Position numbers and translations under genes: made by a program | In this document: in pieces, positions 44,598 through 57,498 of the stretch | Layout of the letters: each line of letters begins with the position of its first letter | How positions within the stretch are numbered: position 1 is the stretch's first letter | The notes under the pieces: generated by a model | Told to the model about the DNA's origin: nothing | What the model saw: the letters and a program-made list of their open reading frames with translations, nothing else | The model's database searches: none | Sequence record: PX068454.1 | Strand: one strand, 5' to 3' | DNA length: 64,000 bases | DNA from: a phage

Positions 44598-47500
44598 TTA
44601 AAGAGAGAAAGTCGCGTAGGCTCCCAGACGATACTGCTGGTCACCAGGGAACATAACACCTATAGAGGCTGTCCCTAGAATCCTGCCTTCCTTTCCAGAC
44701 TCCATTCTGAACCCTACCCATCCTGAACTCCTTGCAGCCTCGATGTTGTCGCTATACCCGAAAGTGGCAAGATCGTCAACACCAGCCCCAAACAGCAACT
44801 GAAGCTGACTTCTCGGAAGCCCTATAATTTCAGGAATATACGCACCAAAGTACACCATCTGCCCTACCTTAGGACCGCTGCCGTACTCCATCGGTTTGCT
44901 TGTAGAGAAAGTCTTCATACCAGAAGTACCTGCCGGATTAGGGTATGCCCCGTTTGTTGCTGTACCTATCCACATTCTCCACTGTGGTGCCATCTGTTTG
45001 ACAGTAAAAGATGTTGAAGACGTTTTGCGACCTGCATCATCAGTAGCTACAAACGTTATAGTGACATTACCAGGAGCTTTAAATGTTACCAGCCCTGTGG
45101 TAGCATCCACTGTTGCAATGTTGGTATTACTGCTTTCCCAAGTCTTTCTAATCCCAGACACATTGGAAGGGGTAATAGAAGGTTCCTGCATCTGCAGTTT
45201 ACCACCTACAATCCCTATGCCGTTACCGGGGTTATACAACACACCAACTTCATCTATAATGTTACCTGCCTTGAGACTATACTTCCTTGAGAAGTTGTAA
45301 GTTCCGTTATAAGTGTGTGTCCCTGAGAAGGTGACATCTGCTTTTCCGTAAGAGATGCAAACCAAAGCATACTTCCTGTCAGGCAACGTTTCTCCAGTCT
45401 CTGGGTGAGTTTTACCTACCTGGAACACACCCGGGTCAGTGGAGTCGTGGCTATCACTAACGGAGCTTGGACCACCCATCAGCTGTGACAAGCAATTCCT
45501 TACCCATGTCCAGTTATTATCGCTGGAGAAGTCCACAGTCAAATCAAACACAACCCACTCATTTGGCTTCCACACAGGTGTTGTAATGGACTTGCCTACG
45601 CCACCCCCTTGGAGTGTTGCCGACTGTTCGGTGATCAGGGCTGCATAGGCCAGAGTCCCTAAACTCAGAGTCTGGCTTGCTGTCCTTACTACCTTAGAAT
45701 CAGCATCTGTGAAGTTGTTGATTATTTGGAATGTGCCATAAGTGTTTTTACAGGTAATTCTGGCGTTCAGTGTGTCAATCTTCCTCACATCTGCCATAGC
45801 AGCGTTAGACACAGAGAAGTCAGAAGCTTTAGCTGAGTTTGCCGCAACAGCAGGATCAACGTTAAGAGTTGCGTTGAACTGACAGGCAGGGGTAACCAGC
45901 AGCTTGTTATCACCTATTTGCTTCCATGAAACACTTTGAACAGGAAGATTCCATTTAATACCTGAGAAAACTTTAGCAACCCTTGGCCCCAAAGCTCCAG
46001 TCCTGTTGTCTTTACAGCACATAGACATGGTGATCGTTGACGGAGCGGCTTGACCAAACAATTGCTGCGCTTTTGCAGAGGACATAGTGTAGAAATTGTC
46101 CTTAACAAACTCATCAGCAGCTAGAGATCCGTCAGCCCTCCACCACTGAACCTGATACCCTGTTTTATCCCAGCCTCCGACCTGCTTCAAGTCCTCCCAA
46201 GAGATTTCCAGATCCCCCGTGGTCGGGTTGATTGCAGCGGTCCCTGGTGTACCGGATGACCACAATGGGATATCAAACCACGCAGGTTTAACAGATTGCA
46301 CTGCATTAGGACCTATTGCAGCAGCAAGTTGTTGACCCATCAGCACGCGAGCATCTTTCACCAGGCCCCATTCTATCATAGATCCAGAGTAACCTTCTTT
46401 CTTGTAGGCAGAGGATCCGTTCAAATGGATGAGCCTGCTGCAGTCGAAGCCATACGCTCCACCACCGTTAGGATCTGCAAAGTTGGTTATGATTCTATCC
46501 CTAATATTTTTCCATGCCCTACCTCCAATCTCGTAGTCATGGTCATAACATCTTTGCAACGTTGTCCAGCAAATGATTGCCATTCTTCTGCCACCTGTGA
46601 ACCCGAAAGCGCCGTCATTCAGCTCTTTCCACAGGTAACAGTTGGTTGTCCACATAGCCCTGTGGATATTGAACCAGTTTATAGATTTAGCGGAGTTGTT
46701 CCACTGAGTTCCGGGTAATTCAGGCCACACTGCATTGACTAGCATGTCCTCTGTACCGGCATCCATTAAGAAACCTCTTACCTTCTTGCCCATACCTGCC
46801 CTGTCTTTAGCAATCCAATTGCCAAACAGTCTCAGTTTTGGACCATAAACAACATCCTCTGGGTGCTCAAAAGAGACATACTTTAAGTAGATTGTTGGGT
46901 CACCGTGGGTGCCATCACAAACACTTTTGTGCATGTTTTCGCCAAGGTCTAGACGAAGCCCCGTCACTACTTTAGACGTGTCGGTGAATTTGTCTGTTAA
47001 GTCAAATTCATACCACCACCACCCACCACCTAGCATAAATTTCTTGCATCGCACAGCGTCTGTGTCAGATATTCTCTTATCCCCTGCAAAAGGTGAATCA
47101 GCAAACTGATAGTGCAGAGCAGTCTCAAATAGGTGGGTGGAAGTTCCGTTCTCTGCAAGAACTTGCTTACCTATCAGATCGCACTTAATGATCATCACAA
47201 CACGCTTGTATCCGTTTGTTACCGGAACTTGCATAGATATGGATGTTCCATCCATGTTCGATCTTAGATCACTCATGATGATATAGGGGTCGACAGCGTT
47301 ACCTAAAGTTTCAGGCCCTGGAATTATCTTGTATTTCTTGACCTGGCCCATAAATCTGTCACTGGCGTAAGTTGCAGCCTCAAAACAAGAGCCACCACCA
47401 GGTAATTCTCCGGGTCCCCAGAAAAATGCCCCATAGCAGTTATAGAACCACTTATTAGGGTCGTATTTGTTCTTGAAGGTCTGGACCTCGTTGGCCTGTT

Positions 47501-50234
47501 TTGTCAAGAAAACCTGCGTATCTGTAAAGATTGCAGGATTTACCCTTGCCTGACGCGGAGGGTAACCTGTAGTTTGGTTAAACCACAAATTACAAGAGTA
47601 ATCCCTCATATAGTCATAATCAGAGTATTTGTTTACATCTTCGTTCCAACACATGTTTAGGTTGGTACCTCCCATGCATACAATATATTCTGCGACATAC
47701 TTATCACTTCTGGTAGGAATACCTATGAACCATCTGTTAACAGGCTCATCCCAAGCTGTGCGCTCATCTTTAACGCAGATAGCAATCCAGTCATGTGTTC
47801 CTGTTTTCTTGCACACATCTCGCTTCATACCATAGTAGAACTCTTTAGTATTTGGCTCAGGTGCATTTATCAGGTAACTCCATGCCTGATTTGCATAAGT
47901 CCCATTGGTGCGCGGATCATGGTCAAAGGCATACATGATGATCCTTTCCCCACCAAGATGTTCGCCAAGAGTAACTTTGACATTCACATCGCCGTAACCG
48001 TTGCGAACAACATCCATATTGTCAATAGAGATGCCTCTAGGGGTATAGGCAATTTTCAGTGAGTTATCCTCACTAGTGCCACCAAGAGTGATCCCTATGT
48101 TGTTTGTTGTCCCGTCGGCATATCTTACTGTAGCTTCCCAGCGTATTCCGAAATATCCTACATCATGGCTGACAATTTTCAATGTACGAGCGCCAGGGTG
48201 AGGTTTTCCAGGATCAGGCCAAGGGTCTGGGTGTTCGTGGACAGTCAACGACGTTCCGTTTTGCTCGTTAACCTGCAACATTTTACCACCTCTACCGTTA
48301 GGGTTGAACTCCCATACGGCCTGTGTCTGCACCAAGTTGTTGTAGGTATTTCGTCTCTGATCATAAATCTCTTGGGTAACATCATAAGTGACTGATCCAG
48401 CATCCATTCTGTGGAGTCGGACCATATACGATGTATCCCCTTCTACTGCAGGCTGAGTCCCATTCAGTCCGAAGTATACAGTATCGTTAACATGGAACTG
48501 CTTGTTTCTGCCAACGGTATGCCACTTGCCGTTGGACGGATACGCAGGAACTATGGTGTTCCAGTTCAAAGTCCTTGTCGTGTGAGTTCTGCCTGTGCCA
48601 TGCTTGTCATGATAGGTTATTTTTACAGAGTACAGGCCACGTCTGTTAACATTTCTGTTATACTGGGTAACAACAACTTCGTTGGCCCCGCCGTGGTTCC
48701 AGTTGGCGGAGAATTGGTAATTTGCATCTGTAACAACCGTACCTGCAGCATTCACCAGTTCAATCTTGTCAATAATGAACGTAGCCCCATCTGGCTGAGG
48801 CTTCAATTTCATCTTGACCGTGTCACCAATGTAGATATTGCTAACACTGCTAACACCATTAACGTCAAAAATATCCTCAACACCCCAACTGTCTACTGGG
48901 ACATTTTTATACCAATTCTCAGGAACCTCTGTGAACCCCTGACTGTTAAGTCTGCCGCCAAACAGGTTGTTAGAGCCTGCAAAACTTCCCCTTGGGACTC
49001 CTGACCACCAAAGTTTACCATTAACAACAGTGAAGGTTCCTAAGAAACCTTCCCTGTGGATGCCTTGGAAATAAACACTCTCTGTCCAGCTAACTGGCAG
49101 GCGTTGCTCAACATATTTAGCTGTAGCAAGAGCTTGATAGTGGATAAAATCGGCCCTAGGACTATTGTTTGCAGATTGTGCACCAATATCATTGCATAAG
49201 TTGCGAGAGAACCCACGATACTGCTTAGTGCCATTATTGAAGAAAATGCCACTTGTGCCGTACCCACGAGCCATTATTACCTCATGGGTGTAGGTGATAT
49301 TCAGTTCCCGCCATGTATCATCTCCCCAAATGTTTTGACCATAAAATACGTTAACAAGCTGCTGGTCATCGGGTCTGTGCATCCTCTGTGTGGCAATTAT
49401 TGCCCCGTTAGGACCGCACATAAACCCTTTCCACTCCTCATCTGCAGGAATGCCCCTCAAATCGTTACGAGTAATCTGCACAGGAGGCCAAACAAGGTCG
49501 TTTCTACTGTTATTTCTCAGAAAGTCATATCCAGCAATCCAGAAACCTCTAGGACCACCGAAAATAACAGAGTTGTCATGCACCTCGCAGTTGATGCTTG
49601 GGTTTTTCCAAGGACCTGTTTCAGGATTTTCCGATGTTTCACCAATCTTTACAGGGGTTGCATGCTGATTTTTATCTACATGCAAAGATCCGTAGGTGTT
49701 GTTACCAGATCCATACAGGTTAAGTATGCCAGTGCCTTCTGCCTCTGCAATAACCCAGACAGTGTTGTTAATACCACCCATCACCTCAATAAGGCGCTCT
49801 GGGTGGGTGTCAAGGTGCAACCCTTTAACGATCTGTTCAGGAAGAGGTGTCCACTCTCTTACACAAACATCATTACCGCCTGCAGCATCAGACCCAATAA
49901 GCCCTGCAGTGCAGCCGATGTAGAAAAACTGGTTATCAAAAGTTCGGATCACAAACGCACGGTCTGCTCTCCACACATGATCAACGTTCCAGGCAGCCTC
50001 GTTGGGATAGTTTATCGTGTCAAGATCCCCAGTGCGGCACTCTCCGAACCTGTTATAGCCTGTGATATTAAGTTGACCATCATCAAAAAGTATAGCTAAG
50101 CTATTTACATAGGATACTGTAGTGCTTGTGCCATCACTGTTGTCTATTGGGTATGACAGAACAGCAAGTTCCTTAATTCCACCCCTCTTATCGAGGAAAT
50201 GACGACCAAGTTTTAGCAAAGGGATTGGAAGCAT
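44598..50234 (-). CDS. giant structural protein (1878 aa) with Ig-like (Big_2-type) domain; candidate fibre or adhesin
   Basis: Single uninterrupted ORF; Big_2-like segment (TWESSNTNIATVDATTGLVTFKAPGNVTITFVATDDAGR); position at end of tail module. Confidence 0.6.
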   Translation of the reverse strand: MLPIPLLKLGRHFLDKRGGIKELAVLSYPIDNSDGTSTTVSYVNSLAILFDDGQLNITGYNRFGECRTGDLDTINYPNEAAWNVDHVWRADRAFVIRTFDNQFFYIGCTAGLIGSDAAGGNDVCVREWTPLPEQIVKGLHLDTHPERLIEVMGGINNTVWVIAEAEGTGILNLYGSGNNTYGSLHVDKNQHATPVKIGETSENPETGPWKNPSINCEVHDNSVIFGGPRGFWIAGYDFLRNNSRNDLVWPPVQITRNDLRGIPADEEWKGFMCGPNGAIIATQRMHRPDDQQLVNVFYGQNIWGDDTWRELNITYTHEVIMARGYGTSGIFFNNGTKQYRGFSRNLCNDIGAQSANNSPRADFIHYQALATAKYVEQRLPVSWTESVYFQGIHREGFLGTFTVVNGKLWWSGVPRGSFAGSNNLFGGRLNSQGFTEVPENWYKNVPVDSWGVEDIFDVNGVSSVSNIYIGDTVKMKLKPQPDGATFIIDKIELVNAAGTVVTDANYQFSANWNHGGANEVVVTQYNRNVNRRGLYSVKITYHDKHGTGRTHTTRTLNWNTIVPAYPSNGKWHTVGRNKQFHVNDTVYFGLNGTQPAVEGDTSYMVRLHRMDAGSVTYDVTQEIYDQRRNTYNNLVQTQAVWEFNPNGRGGKMLQVNEQNGTSLTVHEHPDPWPDPGKPHPGARTLKIVSHDVGYFGIRWEATVRYADGTTNNIGITLGGTSEDNSLKIAYTPRGISIDNMDVVRNGYGDVNVKVTLGEHLGGERIIMYAFDHDPRTNGTYANQAWSYLINAPEPNTKEFYYGMKRDVCKKTGTHDWIAICVKDERTAWDEPVNRWFIGIPTRSDKYVAEYIVCMGGTNLNMCWNEDVNKYSDYDYMRDYSCNLWFNQTTGYPPRQARVNPAIFTDTQVFLTKQANEVQTFKNKYDPNKWFYNCYGAFFWGPGELPGGGSCFEAATYASDRFMGQVKKYKIIPGPETLGNAVDPYIIMSDLRSNMDGTSISMQVPVTNGYKRVVMIIKCDLIGKQVLAENGTSTHLFETALHYQFADSPFAGDKRISDTDAVRCKKFMLGGGWWWYEFDLTDKFTDTSKVVTGLRLDLGENMHKSVCDGTHGDPTIYLKYVSFEHPEDVVYGPKLRLFGNWIAKDRAGMGKKVRGFLMDAGTEDMLVNAVWPELPGTQWNNSAKSINWFNIHRAMWTTNCYLWKELNDGAFGFTGGRRMAIICWTTLQRCYDHDYEIGGRAWKNIRDRIITNFADPNGGGAYGFDCSRLIHLNGSSAYKKEGYSGSMIEWGLVKDARVLMGQQLAAAIGPNAVQSVKPAWFDIPLWSSGTPGTAAINPTTGDLEISWEDLKQVGGWDKTGYQVQWWRADGSLAADEFVKDNFYTMSSAKAQQLFGQAAPSTITMSMCCKDNRTGALGPRVAKVFSGIKWNLPVQSVSWKQIGDNKLLVTPACQFNATLNVDPAVAANSAKASDFSVSNAAMADVRKIDTLNARITCKNTYGTFQIINNFTDADSKVVRTASQTLSLGTLAYAALITEQSATLQGGGVGKSITTPVWKPNEWVVFDLTVDFSSDNNWTWVRNCLSQLMGGPSSVSDSHDSTDPGVFQVGKTHPETGETLPDRKYALVCISYGKADVTFSGTHTYNGTYNFSRKYSLKAGNIIDEVGVLYNPGNGIGIVGGKLQMQEPSITPSNVSGIRKTWESSNTNIATVDATTGLVTFKAPGNVTITFVATDDAGRKTSSTSFTVKQMAPQWRMWIGTATNGAYPNPAGTSGMKTFSTSKPMEYGSGPKVGQMVYFGAYIPEIIGLPRSQLQLLFGAGVDDLATFGYSDNIEAARSSGWVGFRMESGKEGRILGTASIGVMFPGDQQYRLGAYATFSL

Positions 50235-50282: not shown

Positions 50283-52028
50283 TTAACGTTGTGCAATTAC
50301 CACGTCTACGATATCACCAACACCGCAATACGTTAATTGCAGCAAGGTAACACTGTTAGCCTTGTTGTTAATAACAGGTGTTGCCGACAGGATAGCATAC
50401 TTATCGTGCAAAGTCACGTTGTGACCTACAGCATCCTGAATTACATAGATAACTGCAGTGAATGGATAAGGTTTATCTTCCGCTGATGTACCAGGCCATT
50501 GTCCTATTGTAAAATCCCCTTTCGCGTGGACAACATACATACTGGCCTGCCCGTTAGGTGTCCATGTCCCACTGGACGCGTCAACCTCCTCTAAATCAAA
50601 ATCTACCTTTCCTGCGTGGAAAGTAGGGGCAGTAATGGTTTTACCCGCCTCAATTTCTTGAGAGGTGGTTATCTTGCCACTGGAGTTAATGCCATTACAA
50701 ACAAAGTTGACATTGGAGAAGTCTGGCAGCCACCCAGTCACTGTGCCGGATATTTCAAGGTTGTGAAGGTGGGTGGTGCCCGTCCCTGCTGCGTTTAAAC
50801 TAACATCTCCATCTACCTGCAAGTTTCTGGTAACGTTGCAGTTTTCAGAGTTTGCAGTTGTTGCAGTTAAAGTAGTGGTTGTCAGCTCGGTAATTACACC
50901 TTTGTTGGCTGTAAGCCCTTCCCCTTCAAAAGTTGCACGCTCATTGACTCTTAGGGTATTCAGAGCTATGTTTTGGATAGAGGCTGTACCTCGAATAACT
51001 ACAGATCCGCCAACTTCTAAATCACCATTTATTAATGCGTCCCCCGTGCTTTCAATATAGCTAGGGTAAATCATGGTGCCATCGACAGAGTAGGTTATCC
51101 CTGTAACAGTACCTGTCACCTCAAGGTTCTTAACCCTGGTGGTCCCATCTACCTGCAATGTCGGTTCGGTTGCTGCCTTCATGGCATTACCACGAATGTA
51201 CACGTAGTCAAAAAAGTTATTACCTAGACCATCAAAATGCACATCGTTGTTATTAGCCACTGGTTTCCCAGAAGTTATAGTGTCAGCTATAACTCTGTGA
51301 GTTGATACTTCATGAGGTTGCAGCTCTGTGCTTCTCCAGTCTGCATGCTTAGGATCGCTCCACGCAAAAGTTAGTGTAGAAGTATTTGCCGTAAGGATTA
51401 GGTTCCTGAAGCGTGCAGTAGAATCTGCTCCATTAACAGGTCCGTGTAAGGTAAGGGTGCCCCCAACTATGGTGTTGGCAAGTTCTGTAAGACCTTTTAC
51501 CACCAAAGATCCTACAGTAACTTTCATCCCCTCCATGGCTTTAAATATGCTATCCACATAGTCAACAACAAACTCTGTGTTTGCTATAGATTCGGACTTA
51601 TCGTCCATTGGAGGTGTAGGTACTCTCGGGTCACCTTCGAACCTTGGACTGTTAAGTTTTGCGTAGTATTTTGCCATTACTGCAGAATCGGTATATAATC
51701 TCCAGTTCGGAGATTGTGAAGGATCTGCTGGCATCCTAACCGGGTTAGATTTTGATGCTGCTGGGGCGTACCACCACTGAGTGCCTGTATCCCCTTTAAA
51801 CTCGTACAACTGGTTAAAAACTGTTGTGGATGCACCATACGCCCAAGGGATTGGTGGCGTTTTAAAATAAAGGGTGTCAAGCATGGCTTTTCGTACCGTA
51901 GGGATAGTGGTCCCATCCTCTACGACAACTTCATCCACAGCGTTACCGTTGACAATCAAGTGCAAACGTTCAGAATCAACAATTACTTGATCTACCGCCT
52001 GCTCGAAGCTTGTCATGTCTTGCGCCAT
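50283..52028 (-). CDS. tail fibre or tailspike-like protein (581 aa)
   Basis: Gly/Thr/Asn/Val-rich repetitive composition typical of beta-helical fibre proteins; position in tail module. Confidence 0.55.
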   Translation of the reverse strand: MAQDMTSFEQAVDQVIVDSERLHLIVNGNAVDEVVVEDGTTIPTVRKAMLDTLYFKTPPIPWAYGASTTVFNQLYEFKGDTGTQWWYAPAASKSNPVRMPADPSQSPNWRLYTDSAVMAKYYAKLNSPRFEGDPRVPTPPMDDKSESIANTEFVVDYVDSIFKAMEGMKVTVGSLVVKGLTELANTIVGGTLTLHGPVNGADSTARFRNLILTANTSTLTFAWSDPKHADWRSTELQPHEVSTHRVIADTITSGKPVANNNDVHFDGLGNNFFDYVYIRGNAMKAATEPTLQVDGTTRVKNLEVTGTVTGITYSVDGTMIYPSYIESTGDALINGDLEVGGSVVIRGTASIQNIALNTLRVNERATFEGEGLTANKGVITELTTTTLTATTANSENCNVTRNLQVDGDVSLNAAGTGTTHLHNLEISGTVTGWLPDFSNVNFVCNGINSSGKITTSQEIEAGKTITAPTFHAGKVDFDLEEVDASSGTWTPNGQASMYVVHAKGDFTIGQWPGTSAEDKPYPFTAVIYVIQDAVGHNVTLHDKYAILSATPVINNKANSVTLLQLTYCGVGDIVDVVIAQR

Positions 52029-52037
52029 GATTTCTCC

Positions 52038-52304
52038 TTAAGCTTTTTGCTCTTCGTTTTTAACGTGGTCAGGGTGCTGGCAACCCCACCGGAGCGAGAT
52101 GAATTTGCTAATAAGCTGGGGGCAAGCTACCGAAGGTGCGTATATCCACGCATACCATTCAGGAAGCGTATCATTATACCCCATATGAATAAACACCCCA
52201 GTCATCACTGCCATGCCTATGTTTGACCATAGCTTAGATTGGGACACTTTCGTAGGGTCATCAGATGCCGCAACCAACCCCCATAAAAACTGAGTTAATT
52301 TCAT
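52038..52304 (-). CDS. small membrane protein (88 aa)
   Basis: Hydrophobic segments; downstream of fibre gene. Confidence 0.45.
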   Translation of the reverse strand: MKLTQFLWGLVAASDDPTKVSQSKLWSNIGMAVMTGVFIHMGYNDTLPEWYAWIYAPSVACPQLISKFISLRWGCQHPDHVKNEEQKA

Positions 52305-52313
52305 TTACCCTCT

Positions 52314-53360
52314 TTAAGCATAAGATATCGTGATCCATTGACCGTTTACAAATTTTTGAATAGCACCAGTCCAATAGTCACCTTGATACGGGTGTTTATA
52401 GGCGTAATTGCCGGAGCACATTACATGCCCAGGGTATACTCTTGATTCTCTGTAGGTGGTTCTGAAACGGTTTGCTATCCTTACATCTTCAACACCCCTA
52501 CTAGGCATAGGGATAGTAAGGTTACCACTGCTATCTGCGCTACTACCATTTACCCTGCGGACCACGTTTCTCCCACCAACTGTTGCATATTGACCTCTGG
52601 CGGTTTTATCGTTACAATCTACTCTTCCACCTATTTGAGCGCTGCCGCAGGATTGTTGTCCATTAACAGTGGCTCTTGGTATCGTTACCGCATTGGCATT
52701 TGCAGAGGAGCTTTTTGCATCATTGCATTCAAGATTTCCTTGGATAGCCAGTCTTGCACGGTTGGCAGTTATAGCATTGAGCTTCATAGCCGAAAACACA
52801 GGCTGCCCACCAGAAGGTTGAAATCTCCAACGGAAACCGTCTATTTGGTGAGAAGGATCATCAAGGTCTGTGCCGTCAGCGCCACCGATGTTGTCCATAA
52901 TCCAGAAATCCATCATCGTCTTGTCTGGAGTTATGGTGGTGTATATCGCCGCATTGTCTGTTGACGCAGATGCAAACTCAATTCTTTGAAGACCTAAAGT
53001 TTGAGTCTGGATCATTGTGTCTCCAGTCTTGTCAACATAAAGGTCATCCATTTCTTCAGGCGAGTATACATTGAGGACTTTACGTGCAGCAGCTTTGTCT
53101 GGAACGTCTGCCAGATTATTAGTGACCCTTAAGAATCTATTGTCCCATCCGGGGACAACATCTTCTGTTAAATGCTTTAGCCACGCAGAGAGCATGTGGA
53201 GTTCAAAGTTAACAACTTCACATGCTATCCTTTGTGTCATATCCCAACCTTTCAATCTCTCTTCTTTGTTCGGTTGAGACTTGTTCAACTCTCCTGTATT
53301 TTCAAGCACAACATCCTGATTGGCCCAAATATCAAGAGGGATAACTGGTTTAGTCATCAC
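52314..53360 (-). CDS. tail fibre protein, paralog 2 (348 aa)
   Basis: Motif TGDTMIQTQTLGLQRIEF; paralogous along its length to 54373-55413. Confidence 0.65.
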   Translation of the reverse strand: MMTKPVIPLDIWANQDVVLENTGELNKSQPNKEERLKGWDMTQRIACEVVNFELHMLSAWLKHLTEDVVPGWDNRFLRVTNNLADVPDKAAARKVLNVYSPEEMDDLYVDKTGDTMIQTQTLGLQRIEFASASTDNAAIYTTITPDKTMMDFWIMDNIGGADGTDLDDPSHQIDGFRWRFQPSGGQPVFSAMKLNAITANRARLAIQGNLECNDAKSSSANANAVTIPRATVNGQQSCGSAQIGGRVDCNDKTARGQYATVGGRNVVRRVNGSSADSSGNLTIPMPSRGVEDVRIANRFRTTYRESRVYPGHVMCSGNYAYKHPYQGDYWTGAIQKFVNGQWITISYA

Positions 53361-53447
53361 GTTCTCCTGAGAAAATTCCTTAAGGACTATTTTAACACTT
53401 TAGAGAACAAAATGCAAGAACGGCATCCTTGCCGTTCTGGCCTTTGT

Positions 53448-53762
53448 TTACCTTTTACTATGCTCTACAAGCATGTGTAAAATCTTTTGCACATCAGCTC
53501 TGATACCGGAGACATCTGTCCTGACATCTTGCTTAAGGTCGTTAATATCGGCCTCTAGCTTACTTAACCGGGTCTCGATAATGGAATCAAGTCTATCTTT
53601 TGTAACCATGCTATTTTTCACTAAAATGAGGTCTTTCTCCAGCTCATCCAACCTCTTGGAAATGCCTTTCCATTTGGTGTGCCACTGGTTGAAAGCCCAT
53701 ACACAGATCGGGACAACGGTACCCATGCAGATACCGTACAATGCCGCCAAATCCAACTCCAC
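53448..53762 (-). CDS. membrane-anchored coiled-coil protein (104 aa)
   Basis: N-terminal TM helix LAALYGICMGTVVPICVWAF followed by charged helical region. Confidence 0.45.
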   Translation of the reverse strand: MELDLAALYGICMGTVVPICVWAFNQWHTKWKGISKRLDELEKDLILVKNSMVTKDRLDSIIETRLSKLEADINDLKQDVRTDVSGIRADVQKILHMLVEHSKR

Positions 53763-53773
53763 AACACCTCCTC

Positions 53774-54358
53774 TTAGAGGGTAGGTCGTTCCGGGAAGAA
53801 AATGTCAGGGGCTTTAGATGTATCTATTTCAAGAAGTTTTACCCTGTACATTTTCAAATCTCTGATGTTGCGTTTTTGGTCATCAGTAAGATCGTATTCA
53901 AGGTCAATCATGTCTTGATAGGCACCAATTCTAGCAGTAGCCCAAGCAAGTTCTGTCTCTATGACACCCTCTGCCTGTTGAACAAAGAATTCATTGTCTG
54001 TGACAAATTCATCACCAACTAAACGCAAAGCGTCGTGGTGGAGCATAATGTTTTCTGGTACCTCTTCTTTTTTGGCGATAACCACACGAAGACCTGGAGC
54101 AGGCCACAAGGCATCAGGTTCTTCTGTAGATGTCTTAAGAATACCCTTCTCGTCAACAAGTAAGAAGATACAGCCTGGATTTTCTTGTCGCAGTGTTCGT
54201 GATTGCACATACCAATCGCCATCATCATTACGTAAAAAATATCCAGTGTATGCTGTGTAATCCTCAACCTCCTGAGGAGTCAGCTCCTTGGTCTCCTTGT
54301 TGGTGTAGTATTCGCCAGATCCCGGCTGGTAAAGTTTAAACTCTTGAAGTATTTTCAT
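53774..54358 (-). CDS. tail fibre assembly protein (Tfa-like chaperone)
   Basis: Directly downstream of fibre gene; C-terminal region typical of Tfa proteins; 194 aa. Confidence 0.55.
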   Translation of the reverse strand: MKILQEFKLYQPGSGEYYTNKETKELTPQEVEDYTAYTGYFLRNDDGDWYVQSRTLRQENPGCIFLLVDEKGILKTSTEEPDALWPAPGLRVVIAKKEEVPENIMLHHDALRLVGDEFVTDNEFFVQQAEGVIETELAWATARIGAYQDMIDLEYDLTDDQKRNIRDLKMYRVKLLEIDTSKAPDIFFPERPTL

Positions 54359-54372
54359 GCTAGTCCTCCGAT

Positions 54373-55413
54373 CTACGCATAATTAACAGTGATCCATTGA
54401 CCATTTACAAGTTTTTGTAAAGGTCCTGCCCAGTAGGTTGAACCACGCATCTCTTTTTTATCACCAAAATGCCAACCTGTGACAACGTAGCCGTTGCGAA
54501 CTGGAGATTCAGAAACACCATCAACAAGTCTTGCACCGATTCTGATATCCTGTACCCCTGTCTGCGGGATGGTGATCGTTACATCGCCGTTACCGTTAGC
54601 CGTCACTCCATTCACAGAGCGCACCACATTTCTGTTACCGACAACACAATGCTGGCTTCTTACAACCATACTGTCACAACTTGCGCCGCCATTAACATAT
54701 ACGGACCCAGCTGTCAACTGACTAGCCACATTACAGTTGGTGAATGTTGCTGTGCTGCTAATGGTAAGGTTGTTACACCGCATGTTATCGACAACTTCAA
54801 CATTACCTACCACTTTCAACAGCGCACGGTTAGCCGTGATCGCGTTCAGGTACATCAAAGTGAACTCTGGATTAATGTCTGGCTGAGTTGGCTGGAATCT
54901 CCAACGAAACGCATCTACTGTAGATGTGCCACCATCATCAAACGCCCCAGTGTTATCACTTAACCCAAAGTCGAGAGTTGTCTTATCTGGACCAATAGTT
55001 GTCTCTATCCAAGCCTTATCTGTCTCGGCAGCTTTAAAGTTGATACGCTGCAAACCTAAGGGGCCTGTCATTGTATCGCCTGTAACTTTTACATACCTGG
55101 CGTCTGCCTCTTCCTTAGTAATAATCCCAAGGTTTCTACGGGCAACAGGAATGTTCAAAAGATCGCTCAGGTTATTATCACGTACCAGATAACGGCCCTC
55201 TTGGGCAGGGATCTGCTCGTCAGCAATATATTTTGCCCAAGTCCCGAGCATATTGAAAATATAGTTAAGTTCTTCACATGACGGCTTTTGACCAAGATCC
55301 CAACCTTTTCTCCACAAATCATCAATCGGGCGTAGCCTGTTCTGTCTGTGGGTGTTAGGCAGAACCTGATCCTCCTCTGCCCAAATCTCTAATGGAAAAC
55401 TAGGTTTTGACAT
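54373..55413 (-). CDS. tail fibre protein, paralog 1 (346 aa)
   Basis: Motif TGDTMTGPLGLQRINF; C-terminus ..LVNGQWITVNYA. Confidence 0.65.
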   Translation of the reverse strand: MSKPSFPLEIWAEEDQVLPNTHRQNRLRPIDDLWRKGWDLGQKPSCEELNYIFNMLGTWAKYIADEQIPAQEGRYLVRDNNLSDLLNIPVARRNLGIITKEEADARYVKVTGDTMTGPLGLQRINFKAAETDKAWIETTIGPDKTTLDFGLSDNTGAFDDGGTSTVDAFRWRFQPTQPDINPEFTLMYLNAITANRALLKVVGNVEVVDNMRCNNLTISSTATFTNCNVASQLTAGSVYVNGGASCDSMVVRSQHCVVGNRNVVRSVNGVTANGNGDVTITIPQTGVQDIRIGARLVDGVSESPVRNGYVVTGWHFGDKKEMRGSTYWAGPLQKLVNGQWITVNYA

Positions 55414-55425
55414 TTTATCTCCTGA

Positions 55426-57498
55426 TTATGAGAAGTCTGGCGGAACAACATCTTCTACATACCCTTTCAGAGCAACCTGCCCCATATGCAGAACAGTAGA
55501 ATCTCTGGCGGTAACAGTGATGCTGTCAGACATTACTTGCGGGTATGCCCACACATACTGTTTTACCTCAGGGTATCTATACTCTATGGTTGCCATGTTT
55601 CCGCAAATACATCTCCATAAAAATTCTTGGTAATTCCTGGTTGGGTCGTAGCCATATACCGGAGCAAGCTCTTTGCTAGGAACGAACCCTGCAAGGTATT
55701 GTATTTCAGACGGTTTCCAACCTAACTTAACGATAGGTATGTTTACAGACTCTTTTGCCTTTTCAATACCTCCCTGCATCACCCAATCGTAGCACTCAGT
55801 GCAGAAGAAATCAAGAGCACCTGCTTCCTTTTTATATTGGTCAGCAAGGTTCAGTTTTTGCGTAAGCTCGGTTTCCATAATAGTGGGGAAAAACAGTAAA
55901 GCTGTCATCTGAGCTGATGCAGCGTGTGCTTTTATTGCCTTTGAAATAGCTGCAATACGAGCGCCAAGCTTACCACGACAAAATGCTACATACTTGTCAT
56001 AAACACCGCCAGTTTTAGGATCGTCAATAGTCCCAATGTCTAGTGCATATTCACCAGTCTCATCATAAAACGCCTGCTTTGTAGGGTAGTCATAAATACA
56101 AGGCTTACGAGTATCGGTATTGAACCACCACCACGGTTCACCAATCTGCATAATCACTGGCAGGTTGTTTCTCATAGCGGCTGATGCAAAATTCTTAAAT
56201 ACTGCAGTAAGGAAATTCATGCCCTCTTCAATGGTTGGAGACAGGAGGTAACTACAAGGCGTATAGCCTGTTTTAGCATAGTTATCGTTCCAGTCTCTCT
56301 GGGTCCATTCCAACGGACAGGCATCGCTATAAAGCTCAAAGCTTACAGACTGCATAACGTCGAAGTCATGCCGTTTGGCGTTGTACATAAAATCATCATG
56401 CCATTTATAAGCTGCAGCGTTTAGAGCTCCTGTTTTGTTTATAGACCATTGGGTTCCTGACCATGTGTAGTCATAATAATGGCTCATACCAACATAATGG
56501 TTTATGGTTCCTGTATAGCCCAGACGCTTGATATTACTCAACACCCTTAAAGGGGATACGTTCCACATATCGTCATATGCTGTGCAGATCCCAACATCGT
56601 GTTCTTTCACCTGAATATTGTTAAGTTGCATCATTTTCCAGCCTGTGTCCGGCTGAAGAAGATCTAGACGCAACTCACATTCTACATTTTCCGTTCTCGG
56701 GTCTGTACTATTACCTACCCAATCTTTAGGCATAAGTGGTATTAGAATCCTTCTCACCTGCCGAGGATCAACACCCATCATGTTGTTGTTCTGGTCCATC
56801 CCGACGCAGTCCTCGAAATCAATATGAATTTCTGCAACATTCTTATCCTCTGAGATGCTGACAGCATATTGAGCTAAAGGAACATAGATGATTGTACCAT
56901 CAACAAGGTCTACAGTCATAATCATCTTTTCAGGGGTGGAGAAGTTGCTGGCATTGGTTATTGACATTCTGAACCAAAGCTTGGTGTTTCTCATCTCGTA
57001 GTGATCATCAAATCCAATGCCGAAATGGTCATACTTGTCAACTGTTTCCCAAATGCACCCAGCCATGCCTCCATATGTTCTTGACACTAAACGGTTAATA
57101 CAGCAGTTATTATCCGCAACAATACAGGTGCTTTCAGTCTGCTGTGTGGTTGTAACCCAGTATCTTGGGTGAAACATTCTCTCCTCAACGGTATCCCAAG
57201 ATATTCTGTCAAGATTCTCATCTGAAACTATTGTACATTTCGCTCTTTGTGTTCCAATCATAACCCCTTGGGAGTTTGATGAAAACTCCATAAAGAAGCT
57301 TCTTGGCAACCTGTTTGGCAATTTGTCAACAATTTCTACAGGGATCTCAATACTGGTTGCCCCAACCGGGATAGTTACATCGCCCTCAACATGATCATAA
57401 TCCCTACCCGGAACTGCAGTATCCTGAACTGTGCGGTAATGAAACCGTGCAGCCATTGTAGAGTAATCACGGTAAGGTTTAAAAACAGCTGTTGCCAT
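55426..57498 (-). CDS. tail-associated protein (690 aa), possible hydrolase domain
   Basis: Large ORF in tail module; no motif confidently recognised. Confidence 0.5.
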   Translation of the reverse strand: MATAVFKPYRDYSTMAARFHYRTVQDTAVPGRDYDHVEGDVTIPVGATSIEIPVEIVDKLPNRLPRSFFMEFSSNSQGVMIGTQRAKCTIVSDENLDRISWDTVEERMFHPRYWVTTTQQTESTCIVADNNCCINRLVSRTYGGMAGCIWETVDKYDHFGIGFDDHYEMRNTKLWFRMSITNASNFSTPEKMIMTVDLVDGTIIYVPLAQYAVSISEDKNVAEIHIDFEDCVGMDQNNNMMGVDPRQVRRILIPLMPKDWVGNSTDPRTENVECELRLDLLQPDTGWKMMQLNNIQVKEHDVGICTAYDDMWNVSPLRVLSNIKRLGYTGTINHYVGMSHYYDYTWSGTQWSINKTGALNAAAYKWHDDFMYNAKRHDFDVMQSVSFELYSDACPLEWTQRDWNDNYAKTGYTPCSYLLSPTIEEGMNFLTAVFKNFASAAMRNNLPVIMQIGEPWWWFNTDTRKPCIYDYPTKQAFYDETGEYALDIGTIDDPKTGGVYDKYVAFCRGKLGARIAAISKAIKAHAASAQMTALLFFPTIMETELTQKLNLADQYKKEAGALDFFCTECYDWVMQGGIEKAKESVNIPIVKLGWKPSEIQYLAGFVPSKELAPVYGYDPTRNYQEFLWRCICGNMATIEYRYPEVKQYVWAYPQVMSDSITVTARDSTVLHMGQVALKGYVEDVVPPDFS

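Follow-up and report, generated by a model that had tools for sequence, protein, structure and literature searches.

Probable short-patch gene conversion in a near-identical 29-nt block of two paralogous short tail fibre genes of Vequintavirus

The phage sequence PX068454.1, a stretch of 64,000 nt that is referred to in its whole length as the window, carries two genes for short tail fibres (STF), STF1 and STF2. The genes share 52% of their bases, but close to their 3' ends lies a block of 29 nt that is almost the same in both, and the question raised by this locus is what has kept the block alike. An initial annotation, made from the sequence alone, proposed that it could mark a recombination junction for the exchange of receptor-binding modules, unless constraint on the encoded C-terminal peptide explained the similarity by itself. 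The analysis presented here points to another answer: the block has quite probably been homogenised by recurrent short-patch gene conversion between the two paralogues, in an island that is kept similar by protein constraint.

The window is from Vequintavirus, an rV5/FV3-like Escherichia coli phage. The region 52000-55700 (3.7 kb) is 95-99% identical to 117 Vequintavirus phage genomes; closest to it are B9-1, S127 BCL3, and ECP26 at 98.9%, followed by FV3 and the rV5 relatives. The two genes and the two copies of the block are the following.

54373..55413, minus strand: STF1, short tail fibre paralogue 1, 346 aa, orthologue of rV5 gp33 (open reading frame; phrog_4465, E = 4.5e-171)
52314..53357, minus strand: STF2, short tail fibre paralogue 2, 347 aa, orthologue of rV5 gp30 (open reading frame; phrog_4465, E = 4.7e-163)
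54389..54417, minus strand: 29-nt block, copy 1, in STF1, codons Q333-T342, CAAAAACTTGTAAATGGTCAATGGATCAC
52330..52358, minus strand: 29-nt block, copy 2, in STF2, CAAAAATTTGTAAACGGTCAATGGATCAC

The two fibres and their common block

STF1 and STF2 are paralogous over their full length, as had been proposed in the initial annotation. The proteins are identical at 153 of 356 residues (43%, E = 5e-95, full length in BLASTP), both match phrog_4465 over positions 1-342 of 342, and both contain the TGDTM motif and end in ..VNGQWIT(V/I)(N/S)YA. The sizes had been given as 346 and 348 aa. Both reading frames exist, but while the second one opens at a GTG (53360, 348 aa), the ATG at 53357 has an AGGAG 6 nt upstream and all relatives of STF2 are annotated as 347 aa; this ATG is the likely start. 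STF1 is found at 95-100% identity in 116 phage records and is called a short tail fiber protein in the annotation of the BASEL phages. STF2 is among phage records restricted to the 117 Vequintavirus records, all of them with a nucleotide identity of at least 92.5%.

Judged from sequence comparisons, an STF appears to consist of an N-terminal baseplate anchor, a shaft, and a tip domain resembling that of Mu gpS.

55090..55413, minus strand: predicted N-terminal baseplate-attachment domain of STF1, residues 1-108 (phmmer, E = 1.5e-19 to PDB 9cuy chain c residues 1-111, the phiTE short tail fibre)
54376..54555, minus strand: predicted C-terminal tip domain of STF1, residues 287-346, Mu gpS-like (phmmer to PDB 5yvq_A, whole-sequence E = 1.4e-6)
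52317..52496, minus strand: predicted C-terminal tip domain of STF2 (33% identical to the STF1 tip over residues 287-332, 79% over the last 14 residues)

The N-terminal region of the phiTE short tail fibre has been seen by electron cryo-microscopy as the joint that docks on the wedge-1 protein (PMC11972413). Residues 286-343 of the tip can be aligned with residues 440-501 of Mu gpS, including the pattern ..Q.K.NG.W..V; this is a likeness in sequence, the AlphaFold2 monomer of STF1 (from an 8-sequence alignment) having a predicted local distance difference test score (pLDDT) of 33. Across the wider family the modules have boundaries near residues 108 and 287-291. Fibres from Rosemountvirus match residues 287-344 only (about 58% identity), those from Mydovirus match residues 1-291 only, and in the phi92-like fibres only the N- and C-terminal parts match. 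Rosemountvirus and phi92-like phages carry the same tip module, with an identity of about 58%, on fibres whose bodies are unrelated.

The two block copies match at 27 of 29 positions and form the top direct repeat of the locus (family D1), with a spacing of 2,059 bp. They had been described as the last 29 nt of the genes, and the near-identity is as stated. The position is not; counted from the last base of the stop codon, the block occupies -45..-17 and ends 16 nt short of the gene end, and the bases beyond it have diverged. It encodes QK(L/F)VNGQWIT, the most conserved motif of the tip domain. Q333, G338, and W340 are among the few positions that are invariant in an alignment of eight distant fibres including those of Rosemountvirus and phi92-like phages, and the motif has counterparts in the alignments with Mu gpS (PVQKNINGTWYNV) and with the short tail fibre of phiTE.

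A motif under such constraint will give similar nucleotides without any recombination. Chance agreement was assessed by shuffling codons within each gene, keeping both proteins and their alignment. The peptide by itself gives about 23/29 matches, or about 80% nucleotide identity (expectation 23.2/29), and 27 or more matches were obtained with P = 0.008, both for the block and for the best window anywhere. The same codon is used for six of the eight degenerate identical residues of the block, the share outside it being 35% (P = 0.025). What the window shows beyond peptide constraint is therefore real but weak, with P of about 0.01-0.03, and a fair verdict on the window alone would be that the block is mostly peptide constraint. 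The signal becomes strong only when the relatives are included.

The block in Vequintavirus and in lineages B and C

The comparison was widened to the two fibre genes of 18 more genomes and contigs of Vequintavirus. In the rV5 clade (WalterGehring, V18, A147, O157 typing phage 5, Murica, and one IMG/VR contig) the paralogues have an exact run of 30 nt in common, CAAAAACTTGTAAATGGTCAATGGATCACT, and both of them carry the block sequence found in STF1 of the window. All nine block codons are identical between the paralogues, compared to 31% elsewhere (P = 2e-5), and the permutation P of the 30-nt run is 1e-4. Most relatives display a block that is 29-30/30 identical between the paralogues. Exact runs of 30 nt (P = 1e-4), 29 nt (P = 7.5e-4), and 24 nt (P = 0.002) are found among them, and in one relative (L003) seven of nine block codons agree (P = 0.017); outside the block the share of identical codons was 31-38% across the genomes tested. 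The excess of synonymous identity was assessed with Fisher/binomial and codon-permutation tests. A search with the locus gave 202 matching places in the 117 records, which is consistent with about 85 of the records having a second place through cross-matching of the paralogues.

The block is not frozen within the genus. In STF1 the variants CAA/CAG and AAT/AAC occur, in STF2 CTT/TTT (Leu/Phe), AAT/AAC, and ACT/ACC/ACG, and one contig has an AAA/AAG variant. For each paralogue two of ten third positions in the block are polymorphic, compared to 28-30% gene-wide. In the FV3-like clade, to which the window belongs, the STF2 block carries two substitutions. Neither mosaics nor allelic swaps were found in the 117 Vequintavirus isolates, where both genes are collinear and at least 92.5% identical. 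Within the genus 24 sites are polymorphic in both paralogues, one of them in the block. They are scattered along the gene roughly as often as the 28-30% of polymorphic third positions would predict, and their count is uninformative as to ongoing conversion.

A more distant comparison is provided by the uncultured lineage B (L026-L029), four Logan/ENA contigs of 67-126 kb with the same gene order. They were reached through an STF2 orthologue with 77% identity, the only deeper one that a search of 5.8 billion proteins with STF2 returned. Their identity to the isolates in the locus is about 74% at the nucleotide level; STF1 is 76% and STF2 71% identical to the genes of the window, so that 24-29% of the bases differ, and among codons for conserved residues 59% differ. 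Synonymous divergence between this lineage and the window is nearly saturated. Even so, both lineage B paralogues carry CAAAAACTGGTCAATGGTCAGTGGATCAC, with 29/29 matches in L026 and L028 and 28/29 in L027 and L029, and in L026 eight of the nine block codons are identical between the paralogues (P = 1e-3). At three synonymous sites in the block (CTT>CTG, GTA>GTC, and CAA>CAG) the two lineages differ while the paralogues agree. Between orthologues three to four of the nine block codons have changed, which is close to the gene-wide 59%; the sites are free to change, and they change together. A rough calculation illustrates how little of this would be left by independent evolution. Starting from an identical ancestral block, a codon pair of the paralogues would at 59% divergence stay identical with a probability of about 0.46. 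The chance that one lineage keeps 9/9 codons is then about 1e-3, and that the other keeps 8/9 about 1e-2.

The second-best conserved island of the paralogues encodes the motif FRWRFQP (54890-54917 and 52816-52843) and matches at 22/29 positions in the window. Here 20 nt are identical in lineage B and 11 nt in the rV5 clade, the longest run of 20 nt having P of about 0.05, and STF2 of lineage B has Thr rather than Ser after the motif, like its STF1. As a second conversion patch this island is suggestive only.

Lineage C was recovered from IMG/VR and metagenomes with a degenerate block pattern, as contigs of 117-140 kb with the same gene order. It is an uncultured sister of Vequintavirus with about 67% nucleotide identity to any isolate in the phage collection (L038:6151-9289; also L033, L040, L045, L031, L032/L037, L039/L044, and L047). 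Its STF1 is 73% identical to that of the window. Its second fibre combines an N-terminus of the STF2 type (58% to STF2, 42-43% to the STF1s) with a tip of the STF1 type, which over residues 287-332 has 87% amino acid identity to its own paralogue, and the two fibres end in one and the same tail, ..QKLVNGQWITVQTL. Between the paralogues the tips are 72-78% identical; in the unconverted genomes L033 and L040 they differ at 23/104 and 29/104 bases, mostly synonymously.

In two of these genomes, L038 and L045, a tract of about 100 nt in the tip appears to have been copied from one paralogue (of the STF2 type) into STF1. Compared to STF1 of L033, their STF1 has 0/99 differences in the 5' flank and 18/104 in the tract, and between the tract and its own paralogue there are 6/104 differences, the exact runs being 59 and 39 nt long. 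Shared derived bases reach as far as -46 and STF1-type bases resume at -37, which places the end of the tract at the 5' edge of the block. Another contig (IMGVR_..._157310) has a different patch, which is shorter and lies at about -121..-94, and closely related contigs differ in the length of their conversion patches. Copying between the paralogues of this lineage seems to have involved tip-domain tracts of 30-100 nt.

The block itself is different in lineage C. Six third positions distinguish the paralogues in every genome (23/29 nt) and the peptide is identical, so nucleotide identity is not required. The three sites that separate lineage B from lineage A, the lineage of the isolates, are also those whose alleles separate the two paralogues in lineage C, and this is what independent homogenisation of two ancestral alleles would produce. 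The mark of interlocus gene conversion, namely paralogues that are alike within lineages A and B, yet lineages that differ at three synonymous sites, is present in the block.

Weighing the explanations

Recurrent short-patch gene conversion between the paralogues would work by homologous recombination of the non-reciprocal kind, taking place while the phage DNA replicates and joining direct copies that are separated by 2,059 bp. The unchangeable peptide would stop the copies from drifting far apart, and because they stay similar in this way short heteroduplex patches could still form and be repaired. Such repair would reset the synonymous sites to identity. In lineages A and B conversion would be limited to about 30 nt because the surroundings are about 50% diverged, while the tips of lineage C are more alike and its conversion tracts would be longer. 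In the FV3-like sub-clade the island has since gained its two STF2 substitutions and is decaying. Heteroduplex formation followed by patch repair is a molecular route deduced from the sequences.

The simplest rival is that peptide constraint acts alone: QKxVNGQWIT is retained in both proteins, no recombination takes place, and the other synonymous matches are due to chance and shared codon bias. This reading predicts 23.2 of the 29 matches, it is in line with lineage C, where an identical peptide goes with just 23/29 nucleotide matches, and it is compatible with the window, where six of eight codons agree and the longest exact run in the block is 14 nt (P = 0.22). It is difficult to reconcile with the 9/9 codons and the exact 30-nt run of the rV5 clade (P = 2e-5 and 1e-4), with the 29/29 matches of lineage B, which include three co-substituted synonymous sites despite near-saturated orthologous sites, or with the explicit tracts adjoining the block in lineage C. 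As a sole explanation it is already contradicted by the identities in lineage B and the rV5 clade, and it must be regarded as unlikely. What would have spoken for it, a similarity explained by the peptide and relatives without breakpoints, was looked for and is not what the relatives display.

The idea of a recombination junction goes further in the other direction. Here the block and a conserved motif upstream would be kept as a homology anchor by which tips are swapped between fibres, or between co-infecting phages, with a change of host range. The tip domain (about 287-346) is indeed a mobile module across families, the STF2 orthologue of lineage C has a tip of the STF1 type (87% aa) on an STF2-type N-terminus, and the block is where one of the conversion tracts stops. 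For the adhesins of T-even phages, too, crossovers located in short conserved motifs have been documented (PMC3157838). However, no allelic swaps or mosaics occur in the 117 isolates, in agreement with an earlier comparison (PMC8594841), and the exchanges that are seen homogenise the paralogues instead of diversifying them. The breakpoints at the family level are at about 108 and about 287-291, not at 333-342, and identity of the block is not kept by selection; the FV3 clade is losing it, lineage C does not have it, and it decays once conversion has stopped. The copies being direct repeats, a crossover between them would moreover delete tfa, orf104, and most of STF2. An anchor for receptor-module exchange is accordingly quite improbable. 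Of the junction proposed in the initial annotation, the part that stands is that recombination has acted on the block, as seen in the rV5 clade, in lineage B, and at the end of the lineage C tract; the exchange of receptor modules finds no support in the 117 isolates.

A functional element at the nucleotide level, occurring once per fibre gene at its end (an RNA structure, a promoter inside the gene that serves the small gene downstream, or a protein-binding site), is highly improbable. In its favour, both copies are located about 30-60 nt upstream of the next gene start (tfa and orf88, respectively) and the rV5 clade keeps 30/30 identity in the block, but the synonymous sites of the block vary among genomes at the gene-wide rate. 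The 111 nt around each copy fold differently and have no significant hairpin in common, and the 29-mers alone reach -3 kcal/mol (z about -1). Rfam had no match at E <= 1 in 51500-56000. A scan for sigma-70 promoters gave no site on the coding strand at either block, the sole clear signal being the terminator-like hairpin upstream of STF2.

Two further candidates were rejected. An invertible segment or shufflon does not fit a locus where both genes are complete and on the same strand and where no inverted repeats were found except for one palindrome of 15 nt. Import of STF2, or of its tip, was considered by tblastn with the whole protein and with its last 70 residues, and outside the genus nothing above 36-42% was found, 42% being the closest for the tip.

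Some observations weigh against gene conversion as well. The run of 14 nt in the window is not significant, and the conversion event is inferred mainly from relatives since the signal in the window is weak. Outside the block, 5 of about 110 columns show the concerted pattern. Some of these arise because lineage B has undergone a shift in Arg codon usage (three conserved Arg codons have gone from CGY to AGR in both fibre genes), and parallel codon drift adds noise. Three deep lineages only are available, and two of them, B and C, are metagenome assemblies, in which chimeric assembly across repeats of 30-100 nt is hard to exclude fully; the patterns do recur in independent samples (L026-L029 in the one, L038 and L045 in the other). 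Finally, it is conjecture, by analogy with other fibres, that the common C-terminal motif is kept since both fibres would need the same Tfa-assisted trimerisation starting from the C-terminus.

An extension of the gene conversion reading is that the shared extreme C-terminus, QKLVNGQWIT with its lineage-specific tail (..VNYA/..ISYA in Vequintavirus, ..VQTL in both lineage C paralogues), serves as a tag by which one Tfa folds two fibres. Conversion would then keep the tags co-adapted and would be selectively retained instead of being a neutral by-product. This is doubtful at present. If two fibres do use one chaperone, mixed trimers or a swapping of tips between the fibres might be allowed.

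The fibre locus and known systems

The minus strand carries every gene of the fibre locus. In the order of transcription, the neighbours of STF1 and STF2 are the following.

55426-57498, minus strand: fibre of 690 aa with NCTSP TIM-barrel domains, first in the order of transcription
53774..54358, minus strand: Tfa tail fibre assembly chaperone, 194 aa, rV5 gp32 (Pfam Caudo_TAP PF02413, E = 1e-11; phrog_136, E = 1e-36)
53448..53762, minus strand: orf104, 104 aa, function unknown (phrog_5345, E = 1e-48)
53417..53438, minus strand: hairpin resembling an intrinsic terminator, between orf104 and STF2 (9-bp stem followed by a T-rich tail)
52038..52304, minus strand: orf88, membrane protein of 88 aa, directly downstream of STF2 (phrog_1322, E = 2.7e-32)
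Past orf88: fibres of 581 aa and then 1878 aa

The order deacetylase-type fibre, STF1, Tfa, orf104, STF2, orf88, and 581-aa fibre is the same in WalterGehring, FV3, Murica, and others. The chaperone that the initial annotation saw after the first fibre is confirmed by these matches, the one to PF02413 scoring 45.5 bits with a gathering score of 22.1. A Tfa gene is found immediately downstream of STF1 only; STF2 has no chaperone gene of its own, and tblastn of the 194-aa protein against the window returned only the match to itself. The 87-nt intergenic region upstream of STF2 (53361-53447) contains the terminator-like hairpin and the palindrome of 15 nt (53372-53391, around CCTTAAGG), and STF2 may form a transcription unit separate from STF1-tfa-orf104.

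In other Vequintavirinae genera (Av-05, GAP31, a Seunavirus-like Salmonella phage, and KPP-1) there is a single fibre-Tfa-orf104 unit followed by the gene of a 157-aa membrane protein. Avunavirus, Seunavirus, and Mydovirus (L007, L008, L009, and L010) have this gene after orf104 and before orf88, while Vequintavirus lacks it and has STF2 at its position; no remnant of it was found by tblastn against the window. Gene orf104 is kept after tfa in all Vequintavirinae examined, its homologue in Av-05 being annotated as a membrane protein, and orf88 is 51% identical to its homologue in Av-05.

Several records touching this locus deserve a comment. STF1 of V18 (KY683736, L022:4459-5498) has a 1-nt deletion at nucleotide 77 of the gene (AACAGG to AACAG) and its coding sequence is annotated as truncated; if this is not an error of sequencing, the phage is viable with a natural knock-out of STF1. 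Sixteen records named UNVERIFIED Campylobacter phage (MG0656xx, e.g., MG065635, MG065662, and MG065644) are about 95% identical to the locus, and their Campylobacter host label is probably wrong. The Salmonella phage vB_Sen_SG_WM_SEW_6S is filed as Demerecviridae, yet its locus is of the Seunavirus type. In place of the gene for the 1878-aa lateral fibre (44598-50234), one lineage B contig has three genes (475, 183, and 1209+ aa; L026:8124-11044 compared to L027:8124-11044), while other lineage B contigs keep a lateral fibre gene of 1876 aa; this is the variable fibre that was noted in the BASEL paper.

The duplication and the chaperone have already been published. The genes of the window are the same as those for rV5 gp33, gp30, and gp32, with 95-99% protein identity. 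For rV5, gp30 and gp33 were described as two fibre proteins of similar size with 42.3% identity, and gp30, gp32, and gp33 were all detected in the virion proteome; recognition of two lipopolysaccharide (LPS) chemotypes was suggested (Kropinski et al., 2013; PMC3606486). A later study, on Vequintavirinae sensu stricto, names them the two short tail fibre paralogues and notes that they have no allelic variation between genomes. It relates them and their chaperone to GpS/GpU of Mu and to phi92-like phages, which have a single fibre; a role in binding the terminal receptor (the LPS core) was proposed and assigned to neither paralogue (Maffei et al., 2021; PMC8594841). These papers make no mention of a nucleotide-identical 3' block or of gene conversion between the paralogues, and no link of Vequintavirus to gene conversion was found in the literature searched.

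The annotation of the genes as known Vequintavirus short tail fibres with their chaperone is thus unchanged. What the block adds is a small and clean example of how a peptide-constrained island of tens of bases can let two receptor-binding genes that are otherwise very diverged go on recombining with each other; one fibre of a sister lineage has had its entire tip overwritten by the other. For engineering, residues 287-346 or thereabouts behave as a transplantable tip module, the terminal motif probably must stay for Tfa-assisted folding, and the 30-nt direct repeat flanking tfa could cause deletions in constructs.

Among the closest known systems, Mu gpS/gpU (TfaMu, PDB 5YVQ) has in common with STF1 the alignment of the tip domain and a Caudo_TAP gene after the fibre. 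The two tips of Mu alternate when Gin inverts the G segment, which is bounded by inverted repeats. In the window, in contrast, both complete genes are expressed in the same orientation and one chaperone serves two tips, and the anchor and shaft are unrelated to those of Mu. A Mu-type invertible segment with flanking inverted repeats was not found, an invertase not having been looked for beyond the locus. In the Mu fibre-Tfa system, as North and co-workers reportedly described in 2019, Tfa starts trimerisation at the C-terminus of the fibre. The variable N-terminal domain of Tfa binds the fibre tip, while its conserved C-terminal domain drives trimerisation from the fibre C-terminus (PMC9608196).

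The likeness to T-even phages lies in the short peptide-constrained islands, which in diverged fibre or adhesin genes are the only places for homologous recombination. Crossovers in the gp37/gp38 adhesins have been reported within short conserved motifs, for gp38 the glycine-rich ones (Tetart et al., 1998, as cited in Trojet et al., 2011; PMC3157838). In T-even phages the exchanges take place between phages, swap specificity, and were shown experimentally, whereas those described here would be between paralogues in one genome, are homogenising, and are deduced from sequence. With the concerted evolution of bacterial and eukaryotic paralogues by interlocus conversion, as reviewed (PMC3966226; PMC3924837), the block shares paralogues that are closer within a genome than orthologues are between genomes, and a tract delimited by divergence. 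Unlike the usual interlocus conversion, the tract is exceptionally short (about 30 nt) and the genes are otherwise 43% identical in protein. The block is in this sense an ordinary, if new and small, example of a well-known mode of tail fibre evolution, and not a new system.

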